Shown piece by piece: positions 1 to 16,952 of a stretch of DNA of 29,526 nt. This stretch comes from Hadesarchaea archaeon (GTDB lineage Archaea; Hadarchaeota; Hadarchaeia; Hadarchaeales; Hadarchaeaceae). The notes beneath the pieces were generated by a model. It saw only the letters and a program-made list of their open reading frames with translations. It did no database searches and was not told the origin of the DNA. The number at the start of each line of letters is the position of its first letter. Within the stretch, counting starts at the first letter, position 1. The position numbers and the translations under genes were made by a program. The stretch covers positions 1 through 29,526 of the forward strand of contig JAUXAS010000004.1 in the NCBI GenBank assembly GCA_030619825.1, written 5' to 3'.

Positions 1-216
1 CGATCAGGCGTACGACCTCCGATCGAGTGGAATCATCGAGCGCGTGCTTGAGGAGCGGGTGCCTGGAGGGTACGAGTGCACGATAACCATGCTTGGCGGG
101 GCGCGGTTGGGCATCTACCTGCCAAAGGATGTGGTGCGGGAGATGGACATCGAACCCAAGCAAAAAGCCATAATCAAACTGCTGTCAAGGCGTCGGATGG
201 TAATCGAGGTCTAAGG
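1..216 (+). repeat. Direct repeat copy A (pairs with 11774..11989)
   Basis: Ungapped manual alignment at offset 11773 gives about 17 mismatches in 216 nt (about 92%). Identity ends 2 nt after the TAA. Confidence 0.95.
2..214 (+). CDS. 3' part of a YgiT-type zinc-finger/AbrB-like antitoxin (5' end lies outside the window); paralogue of 11523..11987
   Basis: Frame 2 reads DQAYDLRSSGIIERVLEERVPGGYECTITMLGGARLGIYLPKDVVREMDIEPKQKAIIKLLSRRRMVIEV*, which differs at only 4 of 70 aa from the C-terminus of 11523..11987. Confidence 0.85.
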   Translation, partial: DQAYDLRSSGIIERVLEERVPGGYECTITMLGGARLGIYLPKDVVREMDIEPKQKAIIKLLSRRRMVIEV

Positions 217-292: not shown

Positions 293-901
293 ATGGAGCT
301 CGAGCGCAAGCTCTCCCGGATCCCCAGCTACTCGCGCGAGCTGGGCCTGGACCTGCGGAAGCCCCGGGACCGGTTCAAGTGGTTCCTGGCATCGATGCTC
401 TTCGCCAAGCGCATCTCGGCCGACATCGCGAAGAAGACCTATCGGTTATTCGAGGCAGAGGGGCTGACGACCCCCGACGCCCTGCTCCGGGCCGGGTGGG
501 ACAAGCTCGTCGAGGTGCTGGACGCGGGTGGCTACGTGCGCTACGACTTCTCGACCGCGACCAACCTCCTGGAGATGGCGAAGGGCCTCAAGCAGCGGTA
601 TGGGAACCTCGAGCGCTTGCATGAGGAAGCTGCGGGCCCCCGGGAGCTCGAGCGACTCCTCCAGGGGCTCAAGGGCATAGGGCCGACCGCCACGAACATA
701 TTCCTTCGGGAGCTCCGGGGGATATGGCCGAAGGCTAGGCCGAAGCCCTCGAGGCTGGCGCTTGAGGTGGGCAGGCGGCTCAAGCTTCGCGCCCTCGAGC
801 CCTTCGAGTCGGCGCTCGTGAGGCTCAAGCTCGAGTACTGCAAGCGCGGGCGGTGCGGGGCCTGTCCCGTGAGGGGATACTGCAGGCGGCGTGTGGCATG
901 A
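293..901 (+). CDS. HhH-GPD superfamily DNA glycosylase-like protein with C-terminal 4-Cys (Fe-S) motif
   Basis: HhH motif LQGLKGIGPTATNIFLREL and C-terminal CKRGRCGACPVRGYC. ATG at 293 follows GGGTG; alternative starts at 236 and 269. Confidence 0.75.
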   Translation: MELERKLSRIPSYSRELGLDLRKPRDRFKWFLASMLFAKRISADIAKKTYRLFEAEGLTTPDALLRAGWDKLVEVLDAGGYVRYDFSTATNLLEMAKGLKQRYGNLERLHEEAAGPRELERLLQGLKGIGPTATNIFLRELRGIWPKARPKPSRLALEVGRRLKLRALEPFESALVRLKLEYCKRGRCGACPVRGYCRRRVA

Positions 902-1218
902 AGAGTTTTTGAAATGTAAATCCCGCCTAGCCGCGCCACTCCACGCTTGAATTTCGGATTCAAAACCACTTGCTTCAAAGAGAATTTCCCGTTTCAAAGA
1001 AAAAAAGAGATATTGTGGCTCTTTTTCAGGATCCAGCTGACATAAGTATCAAGCTCCCCCAATTTATTTCTAGATGGGCGACTATCCCCAATGGTATTAG
1101 GCTTGCGTTTTCGCTATTTGCTCGAGTTCGGCGCGCACTACGAGCTTAAGCGCTTCCTATACGGCCCACAGCTCCAGAAGCTAAGAGTTAATAGTGTTTT
1201 TTATCAAAATATTCTTGT

Positions 1219-1779
1219 ATGGTATCTGCTGCGGAATGGTTTAAGAGATTTGCTGAGGGACTCCCAAACGATGACGGAGTTAGAATACAGAGAGAATTGT
1301 TTGATGAACGGGGGAATTGGGGGACAGATACTCAGTGGACTCATGTTATGTCTGTTTTCCTGATGAAACTCGCAAGGAAAATGGGCTATTTCCAAGAATG
1401 CAAAAACATCGACTTTATTTGGTATAGGGGTGATTCGATAAATCCATCAATATTAATAGAGCATGAACACGATTACGAAACAGTAACTGGAAGTGAACTC
1501 CCGAAATTGTTACGTTACAAGTGCAAGAAATGTGAACTCAGAATTTTGATCACGTACACTTGGGCTAGTAAACTGGCATCCGCTGATGAAATTAAACAAA
1601 TTAGAGACAAGATACTAACAAATATCTCTGATAAAATCATGGAATTAAGGGAGGTATGGGGTGGAGAGTTTCTTTTAATAATCGGGGATTCATCACCCGC
1701 TGAGGGAGATATAGATTGGGGCAAGTATTGGCACGGTTACATTTTTGATCAATTCAAGTTCCATAAGGTTGTAGTTTGA
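1219..1779 (+). CDS. Putative PD-(D/E)XK restriction-endonuclease-like protein
   Basis: AT-rich 186-aa ORF with IDFIW...ILIEHEHD (D...ExE variant of the catalytic core), followed by a helix (ELPKLL) and a strand (LRILITY). Confidence 0.55.
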   Translation: MVSAAEWFKRFAEGLPNDDGVRIQRELFDERGNWGTDTQWTHVMSVFLMKLARKMGYFQECKNIDFIWYRGDSINPSILIEHEHDYETVTGSELPKLLRYKCKKCELRILITYTWASKLASADEIKQIRDKILTNISDKIMELREVWGGEFLLIIGDSSPAEGDIDWGKYWHGYIFDQFKFHKVVV

Positions 1780-1964
1780 ACTCTTCCTTTTTCTTACCTG
1801 GCCTTTTCATTTTAGAGATATGCAAGATATCGAGGGCAGTCTCTGAAATCGTCAGTTTTACAATATTTGTTTAAAACATCTTCTTCTGTTTTATGCGGCT
1901 CTCCAATCCCGCACTGCTCTTTTGTAACGCCGGGAACCAGCCACTATTCAGCTGCTAGCACTCT

Positions 1965-3077
1965 TTATAGGGGAACAAACTCCACAAAATCTTCGATTCT
2001 TTCGCCACCTTTTACACGTTCTAGCAATTGGTTTAAAAGCTCGCGCGCAGCGGGATTAGGGTGGATGACTTTAGACGCAAATAGCTCCACATGTTTTCGC
2101 AGAGATAGGCGTGCTATTTGTTCAACGACATTGGGTTTGTACCCCTGTACAAAAATATCCAACTTGGGGCATGCGCAAAAGTAGGCCTCGTGGAGACCGT
2201 AACTTGCGAAATTATGCCATTCTTTCATTTTAAAAATTCTGAGCAGAAAGGCGCAGGCGTGAGACGAAAAACTTTCTTGCAAATTACCAGCTTCGCCAAT
2301 GACCTGGACATCGGGTTGCTCTTCAAAAAGATGCAGGGGGAGCCCTTTGACATTGAAATTTGGGAACTCGATCAGTATTCCATATCTGTCTTCGCGTGTC
2401 TGCATGGCGAATACGAATTTTGGCATAGATGCAAAGTTTGTTACACCGCCAAAAATCTCTGCCATGAGGTCTACGTGGGCTGGTGTTATCCTACCGTTGT
2501 CCAGTTTGGGTACATTAATTGCAACTAAAGGAACTTTGCCAGTAGGCGGCACCACTTTGGCAAATTCGCTGAATGTGGTCACATTGTACGGGTTGGCGCA
2601 GTCTTCCATGTTCGTATTCAACCCCTTTGCTTCTGCGAGTTCTCTAGAGCATAAACATGCATCAAAATCCCCCCTTTTTAGCCTAGCAACCGCTTTCGTT
2701 GTTGTTGAACATTTAACGAAACGATTGGTAACGCCCATTTTACGTAGGAAGTTGCTACACTGTTGGTAGGCAACTTCAGCAGAGCCTATCCTCCTCGGCT
2801 GACCGTCGAATTGGGGTTTTGTTGCATATACGAAGATAATCCTCTCACACCAAAGAGTGGAGATACGAGCAACCTCTTCAAAAATCAATTCTTCTGGGGA
2901 GGACTTGGGGATTATTCCACGGTTGGAGTTCCATAAAGGCAGGGCCGCGCTTTTGTTTATCGGGAGCCCTTTTCGGAGAGCGTTTTTTATCTCCTTAAAT
3001 TTTTTAAAGGTAAGTCGCCTGCGCGGAAATCTCTTCTTGCAGGCCAAGTAAGTCATTGAGTATTTGTCTCCAACCAC
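1965..3077 (-). CDS. Diverged prephenate-dehydratase-like protein (PDT domain, degenerate ACT-like domain, HicB-like C-terminus); probably not a housekeeping PheA
   Basis: Co-linear matches to the PDT consensus: VGDKYSMTYLA~LGPxGSxSxxA, FKEIKNALRKG~FxxVFxAVxxG, LPLWNSNRG~VPIENSxEG, SAEVAYQQCSNFL~SHPQALxQCxxFL, STTTKAV~SSTAxAA, SRELAEAKGL~SxxAAxxYGL, NVTTF~NxTRF. Then RYGILIEF...VQVIG (ACT-like) and YFCACPKLDIFVQG (HicB-like). Confidence 0.65.
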   Translation of the reverse strand: MVGDKYSMTYLACKKRFPRRRLTFKKFKEIKNALRKGLPINKSAALPLWNSNRGIIPKSSPEELIFEEVARISTLWCERIIFVYATKPQFDGQPRRIGSAEVAYQQCSNFLRKMGVTNRFVKCSTTTKAVARLKRGDFDACLCSRELAEAKGLNTNMEDCANPYNVTTFSEFAKVVPPTGKVPLVAINVPKLDNGRITPAHVDLMAEIFGGVTNFASMPKFVFAMQTREDRYGILIEFPNFNVKGLPLHLFEEQPDVQVIGEAGNLQESFSSHACAFLLRIFKMKEWHNFASYGLHEAYFCACPKLDIFVQGYKPNVVEQIARLSLRKHVELFASKVIHPNPAARELLNQLLERVKGGERIEDFVEFVPL

Positions 3078-3102
3078 GAGGGTTATGTTAACTGCCGTCT
3101 GC

Positions 3103-4221
3103 TCACCCGCGCTTCATTTTAGTAAGGGCTGAGTTTACTGCGGCCAAAAGCTTTTTAAGCGGCGCATCGCTGATTTCAGCAAGTTTTTTTCGATCGAGGT
3201 TCTCCAAAAACTTGGTGAACTGTTCGATCCTCTCTGGGTAAGATTTGATTGAGAGGCTCGCTCTTGCTAAAGCTGCGGCCTCGTGAAGGCGCAATCCAGC
3301 AGACTCATCTACCATTTTCCAAGCAACTTCGTCCTTATGGCAGTCGATAAGCTCGCGGACATCAGTCATGGTGTTTATCACATCATTATAAACGTAAGAA
3401 AAAAACTTCTCTTTTAGTTCTTTGAACTCTGCCTTGCTTACGAGTTTGTAGCGGCCGTACCTGGTCTTATTAATAAAGTCCTCGAAGCAATTCCACTTGT
3501 CTTTCACAATCGCTTCGGTTTCAAGTTGCTTCTCTTTGTCAAAACTACGCACGAACTCTTTTGTGAAGTTCTCTATTTCCAAAAATTTGTTTATGGTCCT
3601 AATGTTTATCCCGTAAATACGTCGAATCGCGCCATACGCTTTATCTCGTGAAAAACCCCGCCTCCTCGCTTTCTCGTATTCGCCCGCTATAACCGCGGCT
3701 TTAACCTCACGGGGCCACTTTACTTTAAAATCTTCCATATAGTTGGCTTCCGCGACCACCAACTTTTCGAGTATCTTTGGTAGTGGTGGGATGACATCAG
3801 CCGGTATCCGCAAGACGTGGCCTGGTGGTTTTTCACCCCTGTTCACATAGTCTCGCACTAGTATTTTGCACGAAAATAGGCGGCGGTTACCATCGATCAA
3901 GCGTCCATTCTCGGTTAGAGTAATCGGTACCCTTACACCATTCTTATCAATAGATTTTGCGAGTTCTCTAAGCTCGAGCTTCGGATCTGTAATCATTTGG
4001 TCAAGAAGTTCATCGTCAGTCAGTTCATATATTGACCGCCCAGTTTCATGCTGGATACGCTTAATGTTTAAAAATGTTCTCGCATTATCTTTCCAGTATC
4101 TGAGTTTTGAAATATCTATCTTGCCAGTTGTGACCCGCACGCTCACATTATGGTAGATTCTAATAGCTGGCCGCCGATTAACCAAATACTTTAGAATCTT
4201 CCCATTATTGTCTGATGTCAT
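3103..4221 (-). CDS. ParB/Sulfiredoxin-like N-terminal domain protein with helical C-terminus
   Basis: ELAKSIDKNGVRVPITLTENGRLIDGNRR is the ParB/Srx signature (S-I-xx-G...P...IDGxRR). Its ATG overlaps the MTase stop (ATGA). Confidence 0.8.
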   Translation of the reverse strand: MTSDNNGKILKYLVNRRPAIRIYHNVSVRVTTGKIDISKLRYWKDNARTFLNIKRIQHETGRSIYELTDDELLDQMITDPKLELRELAKSIDKNGVRVPITLTENGRLIDGNRRLFSCKILVRDYVNRGEKPPGHVLRIPADVIPPLPKILEKLVVAEANYMEDFKVKWPREVKAAVIAGEYEKARRRGFSRDKAYGAIRRIYGINIRTINKFLEIENFTKEFVRSFDKEKQLETEAIVKDKWNCFEDFINKTRYGRYKLVSKAEFKELKEKFFSYVYNDVINTMTDVRELIDCHKDEVAWKMVDESAGLRLHEAAALARASLSIKSYPERIEQFTKFLENLDRKKLAEISDAPLKKLLAAVNSALTKMKRG

Positions 4222-5375
4222 GAGCAGCCCTCCTCAAACCAATTTATCAAACTCCGGCCAATACCCTCTCCAAGCTCTACAGGGACAGCGTTGCCTATTT
4301 GGATGTAACGTTGCGTCAGACTTCCTTCAAATTGCCAATCTTCAGGATACCCTTGGAGCAAGGCGCACTCCGTGGTCGTGAAGGGCCGCGCTTTGGTAGG
4401 GTGGCAGAGATTTGTTGCTCTTCCCCGGGGATCTGTTGTGATCGTCGGGCAAGGGTTGTCCCACGAGATTCTCCGCGCGAAACCCACTCGACCGCCCCAA
4501 GAGTAGTAGGCGGCGCCCATCACCTTTTTCTGCCACATTTTTGGCAACACCCTCCAGTTCTCACCTGGTTTTACTAATTTATTCGTAAAGATATGTGCCC
4601 GCACCGCATCATAAGGTCGATAGTCAACACCTAGCGTTTCGTGCCCGCCGTCTAAATGGCTGATGACATTTCTAATAGGGCGGTGACAGCTGGCAAATCT
4701 GCCGATTGGCTTTTCAAGCGCGTAACCGTTCCGTGAACCTACAATAAAAACACGTTTCCTCACTTGTGCCGTGCCGAAGTCCGCAGCGTTCAGCTCCCAA
4801 ATATAGGTGTGGTAACCATATTTCTTGTCTCGGCGGAGGGTCTTGTCGAAACAGCCGCGTATAAAATCCCAGGCTGAGCCGAGGCGTACTTTCTTGCCGC
4901 GCGGTTCGCGGGCATTTTTTCTATTTTCGAGAGGTTGGTGGCGGAGGGCAGCGGAGATGATGCCCTTGACGTTTTCAAACACGAAGAAAGTAGGTTTGAT
5001 GCCCCAAACAAGGTCTAAGAACTTCTGAAAGAGGGTGCCATCTTCTGTACTCACAGAACGCCTACGGCCGATAGTGCTAAACGGTTGACATGGCGGACCA
5101 CCGGACACCAGGGCTGCCTCCCCTCTCCTGAGCCCAGCTATTTTCAACAGGCGGTATGCCGACACATTACGCACGTCTTCTTGAAGCACGCACCCGGCCA
5201 GCTGTGGGCGATTTCTGAGGATCGTCTGAACCGCGAAAGGATTCTTCTCAACACATGCTCTGATCTCAAAACCAGCACGTTCAAGCCCCAAGTCTAAGCC
5301 ATATGCCCCGGTGAATAAAGAGATGCTAGGGTAGCATCCGCGCGGCGCTTTTTCGTGGATTCCACTATAGCCCAT
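4218..5375 (-). CDS. dcm: DNA (cytosine-5)-methyltransferase
   Basis: Ordered motifs I (LFTGAYGLDLG), IV (GGPPCQPFS), VI (ENVKG), VIII (QVRKRVF) and X (QIGNAVP). The segment after motif VI and the TRD recall the M.SinI-like subfamily. Start placed at ATG 5375; the ORF is open to GTG 5402. Confidence 0.95.
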   Translation of the reverse strand: MGYSGIHEKAPRGCYPSISLFTGAYGLDLGLERAGFEIRACVEKNPFAVQTILRNRPQLAGCVLQEDVRNVSAYRLLKIAGLRRGEAALVSGGPPCQPFSTIGRRRSVSTEDGTLFQKFLDLVWGIKPTFFVFENVKGIISAALRHQPLENRKNAREPRGKKVRLGSAWDFIRGCFDKTLRRDKKYGYHTYIWELNAADFGTAQVRKRVFIVGSRNGYALEKPIGRFASCHRPIRNVISHLDGGHETLGVDYRPYDAVRAHIFTNKLVKPGENWRVLPKMWQKKVMGAAYYSWGGRVGFARRISWDNPCPTITTDPRGRATNLCHPTKARPFTTTECALLQGYPEDWQFEGSLTQRYIQIGNAVPVELGEGIGRSLINWFEEGCS

Positions 5376-5492
5376 CTTACCAACCAAAAGATACATTCTC
5401 ACATCTGATTTTAGCTTTTCTATAGCGCCGATCGGCGGCAGTGTTTGAACGATAAATTAATTTAACTCATCGGCCTATTCTGGTGGGTTACG

Positions 5493-6173
5493 ATGAGGGT
5501 GCCAGCCCCAGACAAACGCTTCTTCCGCGGCCAGATTCGGAAGTTCTATGCGCGGTCAGGGAGGCATTTCAAGTGGCGCCGGGAGGCAGACCCCTACCGC
5601 GTCCTTATCACTGAGATTTTGTTAAAGAAGACTACAGCAAAGAAAGTCGAAACTATATACGACAGGTTTTTCGCCGAGTACAGTGGTTGGGGAGACTTGA
5701 TGTCGGCAAAGCCGCGGGATCTTCGGAGGGATCTCAGGCACCTGGGCCTGCAGAAACAGCGCACGAAGGCTCTTGGGAAACTTGCGCAGGTTCTTCGCAT
5801 TAAGCACGGAAACAAGGTTCCCTCCACCTACGATGGGCTGGTCAGCCTCCCTGGAGTAGGCAGGTACACCGCCAATGCGGTGCTTTGCTTTGCGTACGGG
5901 GAGCCGCGCCCCGTGGTCGACGTAAATGTTGCTAGGGTTCTCCAGAGGTTTTTCGGCTTGCCCCCTACTAGAGATGTTAACCGGGACGAACCGCTGTGGG
6001 AACTAGCCAAGCAACTCCTGCCAAAAGGCCATTTTAAAGAGCATAACTTTGGGATCATCGACTTCGCAGCTAGAATATGTGGGGCTGTGCGGCTGAAGTG
6101 TGTGGAGTGCGGTCTTGCCCCCCGCTGTGCTTACTTTACTACTGGTCACGGAGCTAACAACAAAAACAGCTAG
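5493..6173 (+). CDS. mig: Mismatch-specific (T/G, U/G) DNA glycosylase, Mig/MutY-like HhH-GPD family with Fe-S cluster
   Basis: RHFKWR..DPYRVLITEILLKKTTA closely resembles Mig.MthI. Also LPGVGRYTA, VVDVNV (catalytic Asp) and C-x6-C-x2-C-x5-C. No MutY C-terminal NUDIX-like domain. Divergent from a C5-MTase. Confidence 0.8.
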   Translation: MRVPAPDKRFFRGQIRKFYARSGRHFKWRREADPYRVLITEILLKKTTAKKVETIYDRFFAEYSGWGDLMSAKPRDLRRDLRHLGLQKQRTKALGKLAQVLRIKHGNKVPSTYDGLVSLPGVGRYTANAVLCFAYGEPRPVVDVNVARVLQRFFGLPPTRDVNRDEPLWELAKQLLPKGHFKEHNFGIIDFAARICGAVRLKCVECGLAPRCAYFTTGHGANNKNS

Positions 6174-6485
6174 TGCTTTCTTGAGCGGCGCTTGCGCTAT
6201 TCGGTCCAACACCTAGGGCGAATACTCTTCTCTCCACGACGGCCTTCGATTGTCGAGCATGCAAAACTCGAGGGCTCTTTCAGCACTAAATAGGGGCAGC
6301 CTCCTATCTTGGGATAGCTTTCCAGCTAGCCGACATAGTATTTCTAAAGGCGAGTCCCGCCAGCCGCACTACTTTATTTTGTTCGTCCTACAAGTAAAAA
6401 AGCTCAATTATTGCTCCTTTTCTGAATCTCTCGAAAAATTTGATCCGAAACATTAAATACGATCCTTTTTGATCCGATCTGATCG

Positions 6486-6821
6486 ATGAGGAAGACACTA
6501 AACTTGGGCAACGGCTACAGGATAAGAGCCACGAGGAAGAAGGTTGGAACTTTCGCGGTAGTCGCGATCGACTGGGAGCACCCCAACTACGGCTACTTCG
6601 CCGATGCGATGCTGTGGGTACGGGCACCCCACATAGATGAATGGGTTTGCCTCAACTTGGTCAGGTGGGGGGAAAAGTACCGTTTGCTGAAGCCATTCCT
6701 GAAGGACTATCCAGCGTTTTCGAAACTTTTTGAATTCGACCCTTTTGAAGAGATACGGGGAGCTATCCGGAAGATATTCGAATCGCGGAAAGCAATTCCT
6801 CGAAAGTATGTGGCTCCTTGA
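6486..6821 (+). CDS. Hypothetical protein
   Basis: 111-aa ATG ORF with protein-like composition in otherwise unassigned space. Its 3' end overlaps the convergent gene by 59 nt. Confidence 0.45.
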   Translation: MRKTLNLGNGYRIRATRKKVGTFAVVAIDWEHPNYGYFADAMLWVRAPHIDEWVCLNLVRWGEKYRLLKPFLKDYPAFSKLFEFDPFEEIRGAIRKIFESRKAIPRKYVAP

Positions 6822-7716
6822 GGTCTATCCCTCCGAACTCGTATTTCATGAAATGTACGTCTGGACTAGAAATCCTCTTGGAAATTTTCTCGGCGATTAT
6901 AACTCCGGTTACGCATTCCTCTCCTAACTCTTCTATATATCCCCGGAGTTGTTTTACATCCTTCATCTCAGCCCTACTTAGTTTCACTTCCACAGCGATT
7001 ATCCTTGATCTGCCCATGGGTTTCGAGTCCTTTATGAGCAAGTCGACATACCCTCGCGGCAATGCTTTTTCCGTTAAGATCTCAAAATCTTCGGGAACAA
7101 AGCCCTTAAAGCCCAGAATACCAAAAAGGTCGTCTAATTTATCGCTCTTGGAGAGATGCTGCCTTATAAGCGAGTGGAGAATTATTTCTCTCAACTGAAA
7201 GACTCCTTGCTGCTTTGTCTTTGTGCCTCTTGCAAATTTTGGGGTGAAATTCTTATGGGGAGGTAAGCTTAAAGGTTCTGGCTCGCCACTGTAAACTTCT
7301 GGAAGTTGGGAAGTACTCTGGAGAGTAGTCTGGTCTGCTTGGAAGTGAGTTTTTCTATACCCACCCCTCAACATCAAGTTTTCTGCGATGTACTGAAACC
7401 CTTCACGCGCTAGTGATTCTTCGAATTTCCTTACCGGTTTCAAATAAAGTCGGTATTGAAAACCAACTGCTCTGCCAAACCTGTAAAGTGGTTCCCATGG
7501 GTATGAGAACCCTGAATCTTCAATTGCTTCCTTTCCTATAACTTTGTAAAGATTATGCGCCTTAGCACCATACAGAAATGAAACGTAATCGCCTTCTTTA
7601 ATCTCTAAATAAGCCCACAGACCATTCATTGTGCTTGGCATGCCCGCATGAGCGTGCTTTTTACATATTTCGAGATTTTCCTTCGTAGAGACTGCGATGA
7701 AGAAGTACGGCTGCAT
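6763..7716 (-). CDS. EVE/DCD (PUA-like) domain fused to a NucS-like PD-(D/E)XK nuclease; candidate modification-dependent restriction enzyme
   Basis: N-terminus YFFIAVSTKENLEICKK...IKEGDYVSFLY...FQYRLYLKP is EVE/DCD-like. C-terminus GYVDLLIKD...IAVEVK...VKQLRGY...GVIIA matches the NucS C-terminal pattern. Confidence 0.75.
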   Translation of the reverse strand: MQPYFFIAVSTKENLEICKKHAHAGMPSTMNGLWAYLEIKEGDYVSFLYGAKAHNLYKVIGKEAIEDSGFSYPWEPLYRFGRAVGFQYRLYLKPVRKFEESLAREGFQYIAENLMLRGGYRKTHFQADQTTLQSTSQLPEVYSGEPEPLSLPPHKNFTPKFARGTKTKQQGVFQLREIILHSLIRQHLSKSDKLDDLFGILGFKGFVPEDFEILTEKALPRGYVDLLIKDSKPMGRSRIIAVEVKLSRAEMKDVKQLRGYIEELGEECVTGVIIAEKISKRISSPDVHFMKYEFGGIDLKEPHTFEELLSAIRISSG

Positions 7717-8060: not shown

Positions 8061-8969
8061 TTACAGTAATCGCCTGAGTTTACTTAGTATGGTGCTCGTT
8101 GTTTCTACTACAACAACGTTTGGCCTTGATAACAATTGAGAAAGAAAGAATAATGTATCTATTTTACGACGTATCCATATTGGGTCGCTTGTATGAACAA
8201 GACCAATGCTACAATTATTCGCGGCTTTTATGAATTCAGTTAGACCTACGAAGTATTCACTTAAGTGTTGTTTCATGTCCGTGAATTCCACGTATTTAGC
8301 GGTTTCTTTGTATTTGGCGTTTCCCGATTTGGGTGGACTCGAGGCGAGGTTTACACCAAGTTTGTAGTTCTCAGAATCGAATGTTCTTAGGATAGAACTC
8401 AAAGGAATATACATGTCGCCCCCTATGATCTTAACGAAGAGAAATTCATTGTGAGGTTTTTGCCGTTTTGTCACGTACTTTGCTCCAGTTCGAAATCTGT
8501 CAAACCATGACCATTCTAACCCAAGATATTGCATAAACATGTAGGCCGCACCCATTCCGAAGTATTGCTTTGGGGGCATCCCATAGCTCTCCCTCTTTAG
8601 CTGGACAAACAGAAGTTTATCTTGCATAGAATTGATGGGGAACTCAACAGCGTAATCGGCGCCTGTTATGCTCTCGGCAGGAATACCTTTCGTTACACCC
8701 ATCGGATCGTGGACAGCAATAATGTAGGATTTTTTTCCGCTAAGATTCACCGTGGTCCTTGCCACCGGCTCAGTTCGTTGGTCGATGTCGATTTTCATGT
8801 TTTTTTCTCTGGCGAATTCCTTACTCCACCGCTTGATTTCCTCACATATGCTGATCCTCTCTCCTTTAAGCTCACTAGGAAACGCACGCGATAAGATGGT
8901 TTCAATATTCCCTATCATCGCTAACCTTGTTGGGTCAACTTGCTCTTCCATTTGACCACTTATCGCCAT
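8061..8969 (-). CDS. Putative PD-(D/E)XK-like nuclease (AD...QxK variant)
   Basis: ESITGADYAV...LLFVQLKR fits the E..GAD...QxK catalytic pattern. 302 aa, AT-rich. Confidence 0.55.
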   Translation of the reverse strand: MAISGQMEEQVDPTRLAMIGNIETILSRAFPSELKGERISICEEIKRWSKEFAREKNMKIDIDQRTEPVARTTVNLSGKKSYIIAVHDPMGVTKGIPAESITGADYAVEFPINSMQDKLLFVQLKRESYGMPPKQYFGMGAAYMFMQYLGLEWSWFDRFRTGAKYVTKRQKPHNEFLFVKIIGGDMYIPLSSILRTFDSENYKLGVNLASSPPKSGNAKYKETAKYVEFTDMKQHLSEYFVGLTEFIKAANNCSIGLVHTSDPIWIRRKIDTLFFLSQLLSRPNVVVVETTSTILSKLRRLL

Positions 8970-9042: not shown

Positions 9043-9082
9043 GTGGGGGTGGTATTAGGAGTTTGAACCCAGATTTGTACCC
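9043..9082 (-). repeat. Degenerate tRNA-3'-end-like repeat, copy 1
   Basis: gtttgaacccagatttgtaccc matches the copy at 23769 at 21 of 22 nt. Confidence 0.6.
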
Positions 9083-9127
9083 TCTAGAACCTACTCTAAA
9101 AATAATTTGTCTGCTTCGATAAACCTA

Positions 9128-9262: not shown

Positions 9263-10711
9263 ATGGGGACATTTTTGGGAAAACATCGCCATCCTTGGGC
9301 CCTCAAACAAATCGACACATTGCTTGAGATAGGCAAAAAGCTACGTTATAACGTATGCACTATTACTTCGGAGCAAGAGAAACAGATCCACCGGGGATAT
9401 ATTGATGTCGCGTGGTACTTCGGACCTCTCATGGACAAGACGTGTTATCTAGCTGCTTTCGAAATCGAGACATCAAAATCGGATTGGGAAAGGATAAGAA
9501 GCAACTCTGCCAAAGTTGCGGTTTTGAATCCATTTATTTTTGCACATATCTTTGGGCCTACCACACAACTAACTGAGAGTGAAAGAAAGGAATTAATAGG
9601 ACTGCACCATGGGCATAATGCATATGTGATCGACAACGAGAAAGAGCTGAAAAAATTTTACAGTGACTTGGAAATATTACTTTCCCCAGAAAAAGTGCTC
9701 GCCAAATTTAGTGAATCTATGCCTTGGCTAAGATGGAAGATAGAAACTAATTTAGAAGGTTTCCAGAAAAAACTTTGGGAATACTACTGGGCCCACGTAC
9801 CCTGCGTTAACTTAGTAATGTGGATGTGGCTAGTATTTAACAGCATCACAGAAAATTTACCGAGAGAAGTTGGATTTTACAACAGCGAATACAGAACTGA
9901 TATTCCTGGCCCGCCGAAGACTAACTTCAAGTTAAAACTAAAATTTGAGTTTGACTCAAATAGCTTTTTAAAATGGTTATCCAGCAAGGAAGGTAAGGAA
10001 TGGTGTGAACAGAAGAAAAAGATAAACCTTGAACTATTTCAAAAAGATCAACGGGCCTTTGTCTTTTCTCCGCTCGGCATTTATTATGATAATGAAGCAT
10101 TTCATGGATGCCGATACCCCCTTTGGGAAGCGGAAAAAGAAGCAATTCTGCTAGAACATGGAATAAAGCCGATCTGGGAAATTAAGTTTGATAAAAATTT
10201 GCCATACAAGATTGTGTTGGCTAGGCTGGAAAATGAAATGAGCTTAGACATGATTTATGAAGCGATTTTACGATCTTACCTTCAATTCAATAAACGTCAG
10301 CCCCCCAAGGAAAAATGGCCTCTTTCAAGTTGTGCCCTCAAGGCTCTAGAACAAACAATGTTGGAATACCTCAAACATACAAGCGTAGAAGAATCTATTC
10401 AACTTCTTTACGAAAAAAAGATATCCCGCTTTAAAGAAGTTTTTGAATGCATTGAAAAATCTCTTGTTCACGAAAGGAAAGATACCTCTAAAACCTTGCT
10501 GAAGAAACTCGAAGAAATAAAAAAGAAGTACAATGAGATTTTAGCCACGCCACCTGAAACATACTCCAAATTCCTCCCGCTCATTACACGTAGAGAGGCA
10601 TATAACGCGAGTGTTTCTCAGGCTCTCAAAGAATCTATCATGCGAATTGGTATGATACTTCCAATATTGACAACGAAAAAACAGGGATCTAAAAAAGTGT
10701 CCGTAGCTTGA
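9263..10711 (+). CDS. Protein with an N-terminal PD-(D/E)XK-like nuclease domain and a long uncharacterised C-terminal region
   Basis: GYIDVAW...AAFEIETS near aa 46-70; 482-aa AT-rich ORF. Confidence 0.6.
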   Translation: MGTFLGKHRHPWALKQIDTLLEIGKKLRYNVCTITSEQEKQIHRGYIDVAWYFGPLMDKTCYLAAFEIETSKSDWERIRSNSAKVAVLNPFIFAHIFGPTTQLTESERKELIGLHHGHNAYVIDNEKELKKFYSDLEILLSPEKVLAKFSESMPWLRWKIETNLEGFQKKLWEYYWAHVPCVNLVMWMWLVFNSITENLPREVGFYNSEYRTDIPGPPKTNFKLKLKFEFDSNSFLKWLSSKEGKEWCEQKKKINLELFQKDQRAFVFSPLGIYYDNEAFHGCRYPLWEAEKEAILLEHGIKPIWEIKFDKNLPYKIVLARLENEMSLDMIYEAILRSYLQFNKRQPPKEKWPLSSCALKALEQTMLEYLKHTSVEESIQLLYEKKISRFKEVFECIEKSLVHERKDTSKTLLKKLEEIKKKYNEILATPPETYSKFLPLITRREAYNASVSQALKESIMRIGMILPILTTKKQGSKKVSVA

Positions 10712-10859
10712 CTCACTAGGTTAAGAAACAGATAACACTACTCTCCTGTTTTCTGTAGAAGAAAAAGATGGTCAGCAAAAGGCAGCTTAATCACTAGATG
10801 TAGCGGTCGCTTAACTGGTTTTTAAACCCGCCCGCAACCCCTGCACAAACGTAAAAACC

Positions 10860-11000
10860 CTAGCGGTGCTTCTTCACCTGTTTCGCGTAGATCTCCCTGA
10901 CCCGCCCGAGGGTGTCCGCCTCCCCGGGTGATTTGTCCGCGCGGACCCGGGTGATCCGGGCGAAGCGCAGGGCCATCCCGCATGGATACTTGGGGCTCCT
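10860..11000 (-). pseudogene. lig: 3'-terminal fragment of archaeal ATP-dependent DNA ligase
   Basis: [41 protein letters not shown] matches the ligase C-terminus with motif VI (SPKY..G.ALRFPR..R.R.DK...ADT). It is a GC-rich patch in AT-rich flanks, and homology stops abruptly upstream of RSP. Confidence 0.8.
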
Positions 11001-11226
11001 CGGTGTGACAGGGACCGTGACGAGGGCGGACCTGTTCAAGGTTGCGGGAAATGATTTCACTACGAGTCGTTTGGGCCCGAAAACTCAGCTCATTGTTTCC
11101 TTATAAATGACCTCCACCCAAAGCCTAGGCGGGAAAAGTGCTGGCAAATGGTAAAAGAGAAAGACGTATTTTTTACGATAATAAAACGAAGAAAATACAA
11201 ATCTATAAAGGGAGGGGCGACAAAAC

Positions 11227-11526
11227 ATGAGGTTGAAGTTCGAGGACATGCGTGAGTTGCGCAAACGCGTCGTCGAACTCGTGAATGAAGAAAAGGTTAT
11301 GATAAGATGGGAACACATAAGGCCGCGTCACGACGTACGAAGGCAAGAGATTCTGGTGGCGCTGCGTTACGGCACACCGCTGAAACCAGACCGAGAAGTG
11401 GAGGGAAGATATGTCACGTGGTCGAAGCTGACGGAGGAAGGAAGAGTGATAAGAATCGTGTTCGAGGTCCAAAAAATCAACGGCGAACTCGTGGTCGTGG
11501 TAACCGCGTTCGGAGAGGAGGAATGA
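11227..11526 (+). CDS. DUF4258-like (RelE/BrnT-fold) putative RNase toxin
   Basis: 99 aa with H..R..V...EI..AL..G, GRVIRIVF and terminal VVVTAF. ATGA overlap with the zinc-finger gene. Confidence 0.7.
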   Translation: MRLKFEDMRELRKRVVELVNEEKVMIRWEHIRPRHDVRRQEILVALRYGTPLKPDREVEGRYVTWSKLTEEGRVIRIVFEVQKINGELVVVVTAFGEEE

Positions 11527-11987
11527 AGATGGAAAGGCCTAGAGATGAAGATATCCATGTCGTGACAAAGGAGGAAATGGAGGAGGTGCGCCGGCTGCTC
11601 GCAAAGGCTGACGCGCGAAAGGAGAGCCCGCTGAAAGGGGTGCGGGGCGGAATCTGCCCGGTCTGCAACCAGCCGACCATGGATTACGCTGACGACTTGG
11701 TCTACGAGAGCTACCGAACGGGGGAGCGGGTGGTGATAACGGGCCTAACGGGGACGCGGTGCAGGAATTGCAGCGATCAGGCGTACGACCTCCGATCGAG
11801 CGGAATCATCGAGCGCGTGCTTGAGGAGCGGGTGCCTGGGGGGTACGAGTGCACGATAACGACTCTTGGCGGGGAGCGATTAGGCATCTACCTGCCAAAG
11901 GATGTGGTGCGGGAGATGGACATCGAACCCAAGCAAAAGGCAATAATCAAGCTGCTAACGAGGCGCCGGATGATAATTGAGGTCTAA
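11523..11987 (+). CDS. YgiT/MqsA-type zinc-finger protein with C-terminal AbrB-like domain (putative antitoxin)
   Basis: CPVC...VVITGLTGTRCRNC zinc ribbon; LGIYLPKDVVREMDIEPKQK is AbrB-like. ATG 11523 follows GGAGAGGAGG. Confidence 0.75.
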   Translation: MKMERPRDEDIHVVTKEEMEEVRRLLAKADARKESPLKGVRGGICPVCNQPTMDYADDLVYESYRTGERVVITGLTGTRCRNCSDQAYDLRSSGIIERVLEERVPGGYECTITTLGGERLGIYLPKDVVREMDIEPKQKAIIKLLTRRRMIIEV

Positions 11988-11989
11988 GG
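11774..11989 (+). repeat. Direct repeat copy B (pairs with 1..216)
   Basis: About 92% ungapped identity to the start of the window. Confidence 0.95.
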
Positions 11990-12142
11990 GCCCAAGCGCG
12001 GGCGGACGTTAGACACCACAAGAAAGCTACTTGAATAGATTCGCGCGTGGGGAAAAAGAAGTTATTTAATGAATTGACTTTTTTGGTGTGTAAAACATGC
12101 CTAATGCTACTAATAGATGCCATTACTGAAACGCCAGATAAA

Positions 12143-12667
12143 CTATTTAGAAATTTCAATCTCCCCGGTTTTTGATGATATCCTGATGGTTTCCCACTCG
12201 TACCTCTCTTTCTCGATTGTCTTCTCTATGCTTTTTTGGATAATTCGTTGGTCCCTGTTTTCAGTCTCATGATCCATAAACACGATTCTCCTCACATTCT
12301 CATCCCTGTTCATCCCGTCGAAAATCACGAAGTCTATGGGGTCGAAAATCGCCTTCGCATCTTGGGGAAAATACCCCAAGGAGGTGAAGAGGGGATCGAC
12401 CCTTCTCAGGAGCTTCGGTAGCAGAACCCTTCTAGCGCGTTCGGTTGCTTTTTTCCTTATGATTTTTAGCTTCTCTTCCAGTTCCCCCTCTTTCTCACCA
12501 AGTTCCTCCCCTTCCGCTAACAGCTTGTCATACCAATCTATCGGAAATTTACGTTTATACGAGATTTTGATTTCGCTGAGTCGAAATATCCCCCCACACA
12601 GAGGGCAAAGACCAAAAATGTTTCTCTGCGCCTTGAAAAGACCGATAAAAGTGCTAGACCCTTTCAT
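12143..12667 (-). CDS. Holliday-junction-resolvase-like endonuclease family (Endonuc_Holl/COG4741) paralogue with degenerate active site
   Basis: PQDAKAIFDPIDFVIFDG signature; the (D/E)xK position reads MDHET; N-terminal CPLC. Confidence 0.75.
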   Translation of the reverse strand: MKGSSTFIGLFKAQRNIFGLCPLCGGIFRLSEIKISYKRKFPIDWYDKLLAEGEELGEKEGELEEKLKIIRKKATERARRVLLPKLLRRVDPLFTSLGYFPQDAKAIFDPIDFVIFDGMNRDENVRRIVFMDHETENRDQRIIQKSIEKTIEKERYEWETIRISSKTGEIEISK

Positions 12668-12679
12668 AGGTTCTCACCA

Positions 12680-13171
12680 CTATTTCTTCTGGTAGACCTC
12701 CCACTCAACTTTCCTTCTTTCGATGGCGTCCTTGATTTGTCTCTGGCGCTCGTTCAATCCAGCTCCGCCTGTCTTGAGGTCTATTATCCTGATGAAGTCA
12801 ACCTTGTTCTTCTCGGCGAGCCCGTCGAAGTGGATGAAGTCAATAGGGTCGAAAAGCCCGCGACAATCCTGTGGGTTGTACTTGAAGCAGGGTAGGGCGG
12901 GCACGATTTTTTCTATAACCTTCCCCACGTTGACGCTGAGGGCTGCCTTTGTGGCCCGTTCTTTTGCCTTTCTACGCCTTTCCCTCAGTTCTTTGCCCCT
13001 CCCTTTGAGCTCCTTCATCCACTCCGCCACCCTTTCCTTAGCCCGAGGGGTGAAGCGGTCGCCGTAGAAAAACTCCACCTTGGCCAGCTGGAAGCTATCC
13101 CCGCAGTTGGGGCACTCGCCATACAAATTTTTGTCAGATTGCAGAATGCGAATGATGTCAGCTTCCCTCAT
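12680..13171 (-). CDS. Holliday-junction-resolvase-like endonuclease family (Endonuc_Holl/COG4741)
   Basis: GKVIEKIVP...PQDCRGLFDPIDFIHFDG...IDLKTG...LNERQRQIKDAIE; N-terminal CPNC. Confidence 0.85.
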   Translation of the reverse strand: MREADIIRILQSDKNLYGECPNCGDSFQLAKVEFFYGDRFTPRAKERVAEWMKELKGRGKELRERRRKAKERATKAALSVNVGKVIEKIVPALPCFKYNPQDCRGLFDPIDFIHFDGLAEKNKVDFIRIIDLKTGGAGLNERQRQIKDAIERRKVEWEVYQKK

Positions 13172-13185
13172 GGTCGCCCCTGCTT

Positions 13186-14742
13186 TCAGATTTCATATGG
13201 TTCCCGCAGTTTAATCTTTTCATGAACCTGCCCAGCCAGTCCTTTGAACTCTCCTGGGTGCTCCGTGTGAACTGGAAATATCTGCCTGGGCTTAATCTCA
13301 CGCACGAAAGCCTTGAGCTCGACCCCGGAAACGTGCCCCGAGGCGTGTACGTGGAGCAGTTCGTGGTCGGGAGGGTTAAGCTTGAAGTGCCTCATCCAGG
13401 CCTTCTTCCGCTCCTCTTCGATCATCCCCTCCTCGTCGTAGGGCTCCGATGAGGCCGAGACGAAGAGGCCCCCCTCCGGAGGCTGCAGGTCGATGAGCTC
13501 GTTGAAATCCCAGAAGGAGAGGTACACGAGGTAGCGCGAGGGGTCGGCCTTGATCTGATAGGCCCGTATCCCATCTTTGAGGTGTCGGGTATCGGGGCCC
13601 CCTTTATCCCAGTCGGAGCTGAACCCCGCGAGGTACTTCGACCTGGTGTAGTCGCCTAGGGAGTATAACATGCTGCCCTTCCGGGAGACGTAAACCTTCA
13701 CTTTCGGGTCGCTCTCCATCTCCCCGCCGCGCCCCAGCTTGTTGAGCAGGTAAGCGGTACGGGCTGATATCGCGAACGTCTTCCCGCCGGCTCGAGCGGC
13801 CTCCCGAAGAGTTTCAAAGCGGGTCAGGTCCTTCCACGCAAAATCAACCCCGACGAACCCCTTGGCCTTCGAGACAAGCTCGGTGCACTCGGCCTGGACG
13901 CGCTCCTCGGAGTCCGGCTCGGTCTCGTCCACACGTGTCCCCTCACTTATCATCACGTCGGGCTCGAGCCCCTTGACCGCATCCTGGAAGCGCTTGGTCG
14001 CCTCGGCCTGCCTTCCGTGGAACCTGAAGTCCCCCGTGTAGAGCACGCGCTTGCCGTCGGAGGTCGTGATCAGATAGGCCACAGCCCCGAGAATCGAGTG
14101 ATCAACGGTGAAGGTCTGGACGTGCAGCCCCCCGATTTTGAGGATATTCCCCGGGGTGAAAATCTTGAACCCGCGGGCAACCTCATTTCCTCTCTTTATC
14201 GTTGGTTTGCCTGGGAAAGCCCCTCTCTTGATGCGATCGGCCCTCCAAGGCTTGACCTTGGTGAACTCATCCCAGCTTATCTCCTCCATGGTCTCCAGCA
14301 CCCGCAGCGTGACCTCGGAGCAGTAAATCGGGACCCGCGGGTCGAGGTAGGGGATGTAGCCGCAGTGGTCGATGTGGGCGTGGGTGAGGAGGACCCCCGT
14401 GAGCCAGGATTTCCCATCGCGCTTGAGCACGTCTCCGTAGCTCTGGAGCTGCGGGGTCCAGTAGGACGTGTCCTCGATGCCGAGCTCTCTGAGTGCATTG
14501 TCGATCTTCGGGACGTGCACGAGGTCGTCCCTGTAAATCCCGTCGAGGCGGGGAATGAGCCCCATTCGGAGGAGGTCCCGGATGCCCCCCTTCGAGCGGG
14601 GACCCATGAAATCACCGTAGAATTCGCCCTTTTGTCCGAAACTGAGGCCGAAGTCGAGCCAGAGGCGGGTGTCGCGGTCCTCGAGCAGGATCTTGTTGCC
14701 GCCGACCTCGCCTAAGCCGCCGTAAAAAGTGAGCTTTGTCAT
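13186..14742 (-). CDS. Metallo-beta-lactamase/beta-CASP nuclease (RNase J-like)
   Basis: YGGLGEVGGN, DFG, THAHIDH, DHS, YTGDFRFHG, HASGH, PVHTEH. Start set at ATG 14742 (MTKLTFYGG). Confidence 0.9.
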   Translation of the reverse strand: MTKLTFYGGLGEVGGNKILLEDRDTRLWLDFGLSFGQKGEFYGDFMGPRSKGGIRDLLRMGLIPRLDGIYRDDLVHVPKIDNALRELGIEDTSYWTPQLQSYGDVLKRDGKSWLTGVLLTHAHIDHCGYIPYLDPRVPIYCSEVTLRVLETMEEISWDEFTKVKPWRADRIKRGAFPGKPTIKRGNEVARGFKIFTPGNILKIGGLHVQTFTVDHSILGAVAYLITTSDGKRVLYTGDFRFHGRQAEATKRFQDAVKGLEPDVMISEGTRVDETEPDSEERVQAECTELVSKAKGFVGVDFAWKDLTRFETLREAARAGGKTFAISARTAYLLNKLGRGGEMESDPKVKVYVSRKGSMLYSLGDYTRSKYLAGFSSDWDKGGPDTRHLKDGIRAYQIKADPSRYLVYLSFWDFNELIDLQPPEGGLFVSASSEPYDEEGMIEEERKKAWMRHFKLNPPDHELLHVHASGHVSGVELKAFVREIKPRQIFPVHTEHPGEFKGLAGQVHEKIKLREPYEI

Positions 14743-15105
14743 TTGCTTGCCTCGAAACGAATGGATTGCGCGAATGTAAAACTTTAACTTTTGCCCGAGT
14801 TTGAGTAATTTTTTCCCCAGGGAATCTAGCGACCAAATGAGAACTGCTCCAAGAGCTCGGGAGGCCACAACCCCTCCAGTGCTATGCGTTCCAGCATTTG
14901 ACTACGAAGACGTGCTTTTCTTCCTACGCATTATAAGAAAAGCCAGGAAATTCCTTTGCTTACAACGAATTATAAGAAATTCCTGTTATCTATTGTACGA
15001 AGGACTTAAATGAACCTGTCTCAAATTCGACGAGCAAAACTGGTGCACTCTTCTAGCCTTCGATACTGCTTCAACTGTTCCAAGAACTTGTGGGCAATTG
15101 AGTAA

Positions 15106-15135
15106 CTTTTTTATACTATCGGATACATTATGTAT
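15106..15135 (+). promoter_or_regulatory. TATA-like box and palindromic operator upstream of the wHTH-MNT/HEPN pair
   Basis: TTTTTATA about 25 nt before ATG 15138, and the perfect palindrome ATACAT-T-ATGTAT at 15123-15135. Confidence 0.5.
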
Positions 15136-15137
15136 TC

Positions 15138-15707
15138 ATGCTCGAATCGATAATTGGCTCAAAAACGAGGGTCAAAATTTTGGCTCTGTTCCTCCTTAGC
15201 CCAGATAGAAAATTATACGTCAGGGAGCTCGCGAGGAAAACTGGCGGGAATATCAACTCTGTGCGAAGGGAACTGCAGAAATTGGAGTCCATAGGTCTAC
15301 TGAAGAGCGAGAGGGTGGGAAACCTGAAGTATTACGTGGTGGATAAAAAAATGCCGATCTATGAGGAACTAAAAAGTATATTTCTGAAGACGGAGGGGCT
15401 AGGCGAGGTCATAAAAGAAAATTTGTCTGGACTCGGCGAGGTGAAACTTGCCTTTATTTATGGCTCGTTCGCAAGGGGAGAGGAGCAGTTGAAAAGCGAT
15501 ATAGACCTCATGATCGTCGGAGAGGTCGATGAGAAGAAGTTGATACCCCTGATTAGAAAGTTGGAGGAGCGGCTGTCGAGGGAGATAAACTACACGCTGT
15601 TCAGCCCTAGGGAGTTCGAGTCAAGGGTAAAGAAAAAGGACCCATTCGTCAGCAATGTGTTGAGGGAGAAGAAGATCCAGCTTGTGGGTGAGCCGAGTGA
15701 AGTTTAA
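15138..15707 (+). CDS. wHTH-fused minimal nucleotidyltransferase (MNT antitoxin)
   Basis: N-terminal ArsR-like wHTH (YVRELARK...SVRRELQKLESIGLL) and IYGSFARGE...SDIDLMIV. Confidence 0.9.
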   Translation: MLESIIGSKTRVKILALFLLSPDRKLYVRELARKTGGNINSVRRELQKLESIGLLKSERVGNLKYYVVDKKMPIYEELKSIFLKTEGLGEVIKENLSGLGEVKLAFIYGSFARGEEQLKSDIDLMIVGEVDEKKLIPLIRKLEERLSREINYTLFSPREFESRVKKKDPFVSNVLREKKIQLVGEPSEV

Positions 15708-16134
15708 GGAATTGGAAAGGGAGGGCCTGATAAAAAGCCTGCCGGTGAACAAGAGGAAGGTCAAGGACTCATTCAAACTCGCCGAGAGGGATTTGAAAAC
15801 AGCCACAAAAATTCTAAAGGATGACCACGACTGGGCTTTCTCCATCGCGTACAATTCCATGCTTCAGGCAGCGAGGGCATTGATGTTCTCCTGTGGCTAT
15901 AGACCCTCGGGTGAGGCTCAGCACGTGTCAGCGGTAAAGTTCGTCGAGGCATTCTTGAGCAAAGAATTTACGGATGTTGTCATTGCGTTCGATAGGATGA
16001 GGAGGAAGAGGCACCTTGCGATCTATGATAGCACCGGTGCTGTATCCGAAACGGATGCTAGAAACGCAATCAAATGGGCGGAAAAATTTCTCAATGAAAT
16101 GAAAAAGATTTTGACTGAAGGCGGTTTTATTTAG
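15697..16134 (+). CDS. HEPN-domain protein (MNT partner)
   Basis: AERDL..A, AYNSMLQAARAL, H...V, RRKRHLAIY. GTG start after GGTGA, overlapping the MNT gene. Confidence 0.85.
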   Translation: MKFKELEREGLIKSLPVNKRKVKDSFKLAERDLKTATKILKDDHDWAFSIAYNSMLQAARALMFSCGYRPSGEAQHVSAVKFVEAFLSKEFTDVVIAFDRMRRKRHLAIYDSTGAVSETDARNAIKWAEKFLNEMKKILTEGGFI

Positions 16135-16787: not shown

Positions 16788-16808
16788 CTGGAACGGCTCA
16801 AGCGTTTT

Positions 16809-16884
16809 CGGCGATCGACGACAGTAGTGCCAACTAAATCTAAAAATTTCACAAGTGTTTAGGCACTACACTCGGCTTTCACCG
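16809..16884. repeat. Imperfect inverted repeat (23-bp arms)
   Basis: Arms 16809-16831 and 16862-16884 match at 17 of 23 positions, including a perfect GTAGTGCC/GGCACTAC core. Confidence 0.5.
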
Positions 16885-16952
16885 GGCAAAAAGTTACCAA
16901 ATGGGTATAAATTGGAAAACCTTATTAATGTATACTTATATGGTATATATTG

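Follow-up and report, generated by a model that had tools for sequence, protein, structure and literature searches.

C5-cytosine DNA methyltransferases (MTases) make 5-methylcytosine (5mC); when this base deaminates, T:G pairs arise, and these are repaired by Vsr or Mig. M.MthTI with Mig.MthI is a type II m5C restriction-modification (RM) system with Mig. ParB proteins bind a nucleoside triphosphate (NTP) through their Box I–III motifs, and the PBP2 cleft closes on small ligands. PD-lambda-5 has been described as a compact RM and abortive infection system in which a ParB-type protein accompanies an MTase (PMC9519451). A phage T/5mC dioxygenase depends on activation by ParB (PMC13229309), and a ParB fold has been turned into an ATPase toxin (10.64898/2026.05.05.722872). 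In prephenate dehydratases (PDTs), TRF is the catalytic and ESRP the regulatory motif (PMC13217925, PMC10845154), and the PDT fold can acquire new chemistry, as in the GqqA acylase (PMC8192741). Here we analyse a 3.4 kb unit of three genes, encoding an MTase, a ParB-like protein and a PDT-like protein, in a 29,526-nucleotide stretch of DNA from a Hadesarchaea archaeon (contig JAUXAS010000004.1, positions 1 to 29,526; the window), whose host genome assembly is 991 kb and 89.3% complete and whose genes point to an archaeal source.

Judged by sequence comparison, the unit is a real cassette, widespread but rare, and it is apparently undescribed so far. The unit and its repair gene comprise the following features:

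4218..5402, minus strand: C5-cytosine DNA methyltransferase (PF00145, E 7.5e-54)
3103..4221, minus strand: ParB/Noc/KorB-fold protein of 372 aa (family-profile motifs, AlphaFold2 (AF2) model, Foldseek)
1965..3098 counting the homologous ACG start, minus strand: PDT-like protein, 370 aa from GTG 3077 (PF00800, AF2, Foldseek)
5493..6173, plus strand: Mig-type T:G mismatch glycosylase, divergent from the MTase (HhH-GPD, 4Fe-4S motif)

Layout and recurrence of the cassette

An earlier note on this DNA had described these four open reading frames (ORFs), and all were confirmed in the window at the places and on the strands given, as was the ATGA overlap between the MTase and ParB-like genes (4218-4221). 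The 25-nt gap it reported before the PDT-like gene is correct if the gene is taken to begin at GTG 3077, the first canonical codon (ORF 1965-3077, minus strand), but the homologous start is the ACG at 3098-3096, 4 nt past the ParB stop; the PDT-like family alignment reaches 7 codons upstream of GTG 3077, to this ACG. A separately assembled contig of 5,594 nt covers window positions 872-6464 at ∼95% identity (258 differences, 5 gaps) and, as it spans the same arrangement, the gene order is not an assembly chimera. The PDT-like gene of this relative is likewise called short, at 363 aa.

A profile built from five close PDT-like homologues, run against 1.84 billion representatives, returned 189 proteins. 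Full-length family members (334-406 aa) make up about 50 of these, and all but two of them score above 85 bits, with ordinary PDTs below 58 bits. Two weak matches from the host phylum (E 2e-4 and 3.5e-4) were rejected as members, being of PDT length and matching the N-terminal domain only. The record of one member, P0032 (WP_238760270.1), gives a cultured isolate, Leptospira levettii, as its source. With subfamily alignments, 18 related loci were retrieved, 14 from GTDB and 4 from metagenomes, among which L011/L013 and L014/L016 are close pairs. The taxa represented include Verrucomicrobia, Lentisphaerota, Margulisiibacteriota, Altiarchaeota, Fibrobacterota, Gallionellaceae, Nitrosovibrio and Ghiorsea, so that the synteny of the three genes, which the earlier note had proposed to look for in unrelated genomes, does recur across phyla.

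Among the 15 loci that include upstream DNA, 14 have the ParB-like gene immediately upstream of the PDT-like gene and in the same orientation; the other three of the 18 (L019, L021 and L022) begin at a contig edge, and in the genome of L019 a ParB gene runs off another contig. For the closest JGI homologues, P0003 and P0007, the longest contig is 8,880 nt in both cases, in keeping with linkage. A cassette-type MTase is adjacent in 15/18 loci, upstream and co-oriented in 10 (including L007, where it is split) and downstream and convergent in 5. On a viral contig (L041) an intact ParB-like gene is followed by the first ∼21 codons of a PDT-like gene before phage DNA begins; L041 was rejected as a case of ParB without PDT-like, because the truncated gene follows the ParB stop. 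Pairwise identities over 14 loci correlate strongly between the ParB-like and PDT-like proteins (rho 0.90, reached in 0/5000 permutations) and weakly between the MTase and either partner (0.29 with ParB-like, 0.33 with PDT-like), shared ancestry alone yielding part of such correlations. With 0.90 for the pair against ∼0.3 with the MTase, the sequences indicate that the ParB-like and PDT-like genes are the stable core of the cassette, the MTase being exchanged within its clade or evolving at another rate.

The rarity of the cassette is evident from its presence in 1 of 66 host-phylum genomes, and from full-length ParB-like proteins in 1/401, 1/401 and 3/401 genomes of three overlapping draws. 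Searches of these draws that began from the ParB-like protein, a small reverse test, returned only five genomes, all already in the PDT-like set. The PDT-like protein had no match in the plasmid or phage collections, no IMG/VR locus and no BFVD match at E<=0.001; for the ParB-like protein there was one partial match in the plasmid collection and none in the phage collection. RM, toxin-antitoxin (TA) or integrase genes were found in 6/18 loci (L008, L009, L012, L014, L015 and L016; a count without background control). No restriction endonuclease (REase) family recurs among 114 neighbours, these being hand-picked ORFs of which the unnamed ones were not clustered against each other.

Folds and conserved residues of the encoded proteins

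Residues 2-170 of the PDT-like protein match PF00800 (E 4.7e-10; 40 bits, cut-off 25.2). The AF2 model, based on a 49-row alignment, has a predicted local distance difference test (pLDDT) score of 93, and Foldseek matched it to the PDT structure 6VH5 (E 2.3e-12); superposition on 3MWB (VIA) gave Z 18.4 and a root-mean-square deviation of 3.4 with 254 residues aligned. The PDT fold, which the earlier note had staked on a structure search, is confirmed by these matches (Foldseek 6VH5, Z 18.4). That the fold is followed end to end stands for the PDT and ACT parts (residues 1-276), but not beyond, where a further C-terminal domain was found; in the GTG 3077 numbering the domains are PDT (PBP2) at ∼1-175, ACT-like at ∼180-268 and the extra domain at ∼270-370.

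The extra domain (∼95 aa) is built as α-β-β-β-α plus a helix and had no Pfam or PDB sequence match. Its topology fits the β-β-β-α of HicB, with one HicB-like row in BFVD (E 0.91, TMt 0.48; domain not folded alone), and hhalign against a 6-row HicB alignment gave 0.25%. The profiles gave a HicB identity no support, and the topology serves as a lead only. In a protein-cluster atlas the PDT-like protein matches only PDT clusters, at under 0.9.

Residues of the cleft were compared between 63 family rows and 65 PDT-type rows (64 low-scoring matches of at least 240 aa and the host PheA). The family keeps S7 (62/63), P47, N50 (62), G54 (62), S99 (56), Q106, C107, T126 (56), N165, T167 and F169, in 63/63 rows unless given. 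By contrast, the ENS glutamate is replaced by Trp in 63/63 rows, the SHPQ histidine mostly by Val (54/63), and the NxTRF motif is found in 0/63: its T and F are kept throughout and R is replaced by T, S, V or others. ESRP in the ACT domain occurs in 0/63 family rows compared to 21/65 PDT-type rows, as well as the host PheA. Since polar residues are kept while the TRF, ENS-Glu, SHPQ-His and ESRP positions are replaced, the cleft looks retooled, not dead, and with T167, N50 and Q106 kept, the family may have residual prephenate-to-phenylpyruvate activity. The host encodes its canonical pheA elsewhere, on contig C72 (199 bits, with PIES, NITRF and ESRP), beside TyrA- and AroE-like genes named from their sequences. 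The PDT-like family is acidic (median isoelectric point, pI, 5.2); the window copy has a pI of 9.3.

As a single sequence the ParB-like protein matched only TIGR00180 (E 0.0018) and no Pfam family. The family profile matches 7BNK (E 0.011), and the AF2 model (pLDDT 92) retrieved 6SDK (E 2e-4), followed by 7BNK, Noc 7NFU, KorB 8QA8 and Spo0J in Foldseek, with low TM-scores of 0.2-0.3 by query and no clear match for the C-terminal half, which is all-helical. These results bear out the ParB/Srx-domain assignment of the earlier note. The architecture comprises an N-terminal β-hairpin, the ParB nucleotide-binding domain, a helix-turn-helix (HTH)-like region and the helical C-terminal half. A 20-row profile returned 204 proteins, the best 120 of which all have E<1e-134. 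Invariant across 128 rows are W43, N46, R48, S90, N94, P99, D110-G-N-R-R114, A157, E158 and N160, motifs that on alignment match ParB Boxes I-III, including GxxR of Box II and, putatively, Box III, as defined in an orphan-ParB survey (10.1101/2025.10.10.680097). The C-terminal half carries the conserved charged motifs FWEFxNK, KQVE and EDKxR, and the family is basic (median pI 9.2). In the protein-cluster atlas a ParB-like homologue fell into unnamed clusters and one in which 17% of members have ParB_N. No ParA was found by Pfam among the 26 window proteins, nor among the 114 scanned neighbours of related loci.

A more distant ParB subfamily, scoring 116-124 bits against the family profile, was seen in three IMG/VR loci (L042:5850-12005, L043:5817-12007 and L044:6964-13670). 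Its module consists of a C5-MTase, a ∼275-317-aa protein, the ParB protein, an SNF2 helicase (565 aa) and a ∼400-aa protein, with no PDT-like gene.

The methylase, named a 5mC MTase from the outset, carries the catalytic GGPPCQ and ENV (FENVKG) motifs in addition to its PF00145 match. Its target-recognition domain (TRD) has the motif WGGRVGFARR; in the cassette MTases this region reads [WT]GG[RK]xGFxRR[LVI]xW (one row with D for the last W), against GGKTGF in MTases linked to SinI. All 15 intact MTases of the cassette type (one in the window, 14 in related loci) fall into one clade, with a support of 94, beside plasmid MTases (FastTree with 24 rows and IQ-TREE quick with 25, two rows being left out), and three of the six close plasmid homologues inspected adjoin SinI-family REases. 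SinI itself has GGWCC specificity. When palindromes are ranked by their depletion in 39 cassette genes relative to codon shuffles, GGNCC comes first and GGWCC third (z -4.6 and -3.8); the gene set omits the near-duplicates L013 and L016, as well as L018, L019 and partial genes. The observed/expected ratio of GGWCC is 0.51 in these genes against 0.81 in 40 neighbouring genes, a weak difference. The predicted target of the cassette MTase is of the GGWCC/GGNCC type.

The divergent T/G glycosylase of the earlier note was likewise recovered, its best PDB match being 1KEA (Mig; E 8.5e-52) versus 1e-29 for MutY. The Tyr of GVG[RK]YT (GVGRYT in the window) aligns with the catalytic position of HhH enzymes, and the 4Fe-4S motif is C-x6-C-x2-C-x5-C. 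A PADLOC match to a ‘Type II nicking endonuclease’ (E 1e-52) is this glycosylase and was rejected as an REase. Vsr was found in 7/18 loci and a Mig-like gene in 3/18, which makes Mig and Vsr an exchangeable repair accessory of the cassette; the presence of one or the other in 10/18 loci argues for an active 5mC MTase.

The absence of an REase from the unit was upheld, in that none of a recognised family was found in Pfam, PADLOC or the fold searches; no REase model in Pfam or PADLOC matches the ParB-like or PDT-like protein, and both have other folds. PADLOC 2.0 gave no match for either window protein, and 10 such proteins from five cassette loci gave one weak match to the PD-lambda-5A N-domain and otherwise none. 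Furthermore, the earlier note knew of no described system that combines the three genes, and we found no PADLOC model and no paper, the literature covered being full texts, mostly non-subscription, with supplements outside the scope. Main texts pairing prephenate dehydratase with ParB, methyltransferase, restriction-modification, Vsr or anti-phage defence yielded nothing relevant, and ‘prephenate’ is absent from the main text of the orphan-ParB survey.

The surrounding island

Three further features were noted around the unit:

1219..1779, plus strand: 186-aa ORF, convergent with the PDT-like gene, with a D...EHE stretch that is nuclease-like by eye only
1..216, plus strand: left copy of a 216-bp direct repeat, the 3' end of an antitoxin-like gene
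11774..11989, plus strand: right copy of the 216-bp direct repeat, 92% identical to 1..216

The 186-aa ORF is present on the contig of the ∼95% relative. It had no match in Pfam, PADLOC or NCBIfam and no homologue among the ORFs of loci L007-L024 at E<=0.001, and on these comparisons it is not a conserved part of the cassette.

The GC content of the island is 0.41-0.45 in parts, compared to 0.55 over 12100-29526, and the 216-bp repeat flanks it. The duplicated 3' end belongs to an MqsA/MazE-like antitoxin gene (11227-11987) and borders the island at 1-216 and 11774-11989, and parts of the HhH gene at 236-901 and of 10853-10999 recur on two other host contigs (C18 and C76). Because of the duplicated antitoxin end and the pieces of the HhH gene repeated on other contigs, the island looks like a recombination-prone cassette site. 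Short elements at ∼9051-9092 and ∼11099-11134 have copies on several contigs, and at many loose contig ends in two further assemblies; they are possibly a dispersed repeat or recombination site.

Beside the unit, one gene encodes a protein with a NucS-type nuclease domain; two ORFs, of 302 aa and 482 aa, and a tandem pair of Endonuc_Holl genes are also present (6763-7716, 8061-8969, 9263-10711 and 12143-13171). Neither the NucS-type gene nor the 302-aa and 482-aa ORFs recur in the cassette loci. Further along are modules of toxin-antitoxin type, namely an HTH-nucleotidyltransferase and HEPN pair (15138-16134) and a second HTH and nucleotidyltransferase-like pair (16950-18385). At 19115-22443 (plus strand), a short SMC-like ATPase (640 aa) is followed by weak matches to Nse4_C (E 0.004) and MAGE/Nse1 (E 0.02-0.04), which we read as an Smc5/6-like SMC-kleisin-KITE operon. 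Internally repeated membrane-protein genes, two paralogues with ∼200-bp units 76-87% identical, occupy 22977-23683 and 24808-25307.

Possible functions and comparison with known systems

The reading we favour, to which we give about an even chance, is that the three genes constitute one mobile cassette for a methylation-guarded, nuclease-free defence. GGWCC-type sites in the host's DNA would receive the methyl group from the MTase, and the ParB-like protein would clamp onto DNA lacking the methyl mark, its loading being presumably sensitive to methylation. The PDT-like partner, in a putative complex, would bind the ParB clamp and a small metabolite, and would gate or deliver the block. Foreign DNA would then be stalled, or else the ParB fold or the retooled cleft of the PDT-like protein would drain NTP or a metabolite and so cause arrest. 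The defence reading is favoured by the relationship of the adjoining MTases to SinI-linked MTases, which serve REases, and by the varying position of the MTase (upstream or convergent), as M and R genes rearrange.

Several observations weigh against it. The chemistry of an effector is not visible in the PDT-like sequences or the ParB model: E237 is the only conserved charged residue of the PDT-like family, and the ParB-like model gave no nuclease match in Foldseek. L018 is an exception to the gene order, carrying an MTase, Vsr and a 5'-truncated PDT-like gene in a genome with no ParB-like gene, and in L007 the MTase is split over two frames beside intact ParB-like and PDT-like ORFs. In G474 the MTase nearest the ParB-like gene belongs to another clade, the clade support of 94 is not starred, and 12/18 loci have no other recognised defence gene. 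The site depletion is not specific, as CCWGG is also low (0.64 versus 0.95) and CTWAG and GTAC are low in both gene sets. Moreover, the window PDT-like gene has no canonical start at the homologous position, and compared to the ∼95% relative 21/363 PDT-like residues (5.8%) and 28/372 ParB-like residues (7.5%) differ, some at conserved sites, with a DNA difference of 4.6%; this non-canonical start and these replacements suggest purifying but relaxed selection on both genes in this lineage, a rough estimate from the residue and DNA differences. The earlier note had also proposed that the ParB-like and PDT-like proteins replace the REase. Their position in the R slot is backed by the anatomy, but L007 speaks against an addiction version, lethal without the MTase; strict addiction is disfavoured since the L007 MTase is split, and since in L041 an intact ParB-like gene stands beside a truncated PDT-like gene.

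A rival reading is an epigenetic regulator, in which a sliding clamp like KorB, VirB or Noc silences or unsilences genes from methylation-controlled sites with the PDT/ACT protein as metabolite-sensing co-regulator. ParB, Noc and KorB are the nearest structural matches, the PBP2 and ACT folds sense ligands, no nuclease is present, the split MTase is tolerated in L007 and many loci lie among housekeeping genes. However, the cassette occurs sporadically across phyla without any conserved target genes, its MTase has REase-linked relatives, and ESRP, the ligand motif of the ACT domain, is missing from 63/63 rows; we regard this account as unlikely. Less likely again is DNA hypermodification, with ParB guiding or activating a PDT-like protein that further alters 5mC or another base. 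The ParB-activated phage T/5mC dioxygenase (PMC13229309) and the chemistry of GqqA (PMC8192741) offer precedents, and Q106, C107, N165 and T167 are invariant. Set against these, Vsr or Mig in 10/18 loci fits plain 5mC, a PBP2 cleft suits small ligands, the family median pI of 5.2 is poor for DNA binding, no donor-supplying genes recur, and the phage and IMG/VR sets hold no intact PDT-like gene.

We are more doubtful still of a cryptic two-subunit REase, whose ParB-like subunit would cut unmethylated DNA (through the ParB/Srx site or the helical C-terminal half) under regulation by the PDT-like subunit. The pair does stand where an REase would, next to a SinI-like MTase and Vsr/Mig, and FWEFxNK, KQVE and EDKxR are charged motifs; yet Pfam and PADLOC gave no PD-(D/E)xK, HNH, GIY-YIG or PLD match, the C-terminal half is all-helical and a split MTase, as in L007, should be lethal. 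The least probable explanation is the ordinary one, an orphan or decayed type II MTase and repair gene beside an unrelated pair that includes a working prephenate dehydratase. Databases label members ‘prephenate dehydratase’, T167 and F169 of TRF are kept with N50 and Q106, co-divergence of the MTase is weak, and the 186-aa ORF could be the REase in the window. Conversely, the host has a canonical pheA, the family is never found in an aromatic operon (0/18 loci), the same MTase clade occurs in two different arrangements, and the other loci lack the 186-aa ORF; on the strength of the recurring gene order, mere coincidence is already largely refuted.

If the nuclease-free defence is correct, self and non-self would be distinguished by methylation in a system executed by a ParB clamp and a metabolic-enzyme fold, giving the ParB NTP switch a new use and the PDT/ACT fold a part in DNA conflict that is absent from the literature searched. 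A bolder version, which we advance tentatively, is a nuclease-free RM class in which an NTP-gated ParB clamp senses missing 5mC and switches on an amino-acid-biosynthesis fold as immune effector or metabolic checkpoint; if true, it would link DNA methylation status to central metabolism in bacteria and archaea. Even if the regulatory alternative holds, the cassette would represent a clamp that is linked to methylation, carries a metabolite sensor and has not been described before. In defence catalogues such loci would count as orphan methylases, and the partner is called ‘prephenate dehydratase’ by annotation pipelines.

Among known proteins, PheA and GqqA share with the family the PDT and ACT fold (residues 1-276) and the S, N, Q, T and F residues of the cleft. 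The family differs in the replaced TRF, ENS-Glu, SHPQ-His and ESRP positions, in its extra C-terminal domain and in being tied to DNA-methylation genes. Likewise, the ParB-like family has the Box I-III motifs and the NTPase and HTH-like architecture of the ParB/Noc/KorB clamps, from which it is set apart by an additional N-terminal hairpin, a long helical C-terminal half, a fixed PDT-like partner and no parA nearby. PD-lambda-5 resembles the cassette in having an MTase-paired protein, and its model weakly matches the ParB N-domain of relatives (E 1e-4 to 5e-4), the PD-lambda-5A matches being confined to 62-72 residues in two relatives. However, its B model matches D12-class N6-adenine MTases whereas the cassette MTase is C5, and there is no full-length similarity, no PDT-like partner and no match to the window protein. 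In the ParB-dependent phage T-dioxygenases (PMC13229309), too, a ParB-like protein is dedicated to an enzyme encoded next to it in the context of DNA modification, but the enzyme is a 2OG-Fe dioxygenase, the ParB lacks a DNA-binding domain and the system is phage-borne.

In common with type II m5C RM systems with Vsr or Mig, the cassette has a C5-MTase with a similar target-recognition region, a T:G repair gene, a co-oriented or convergent M gene and a sporadic distribution. In contrast to them, its MTases form a clade of their own, and co-diverging ParB-fold and PDT-fold genes stand in the place of a recognisable REase. As read from its genes, the cassette is organised like a type II m5C system whose R slot is filled by an NTP-binding clamp fold and a ligand-binding metabolic fold.

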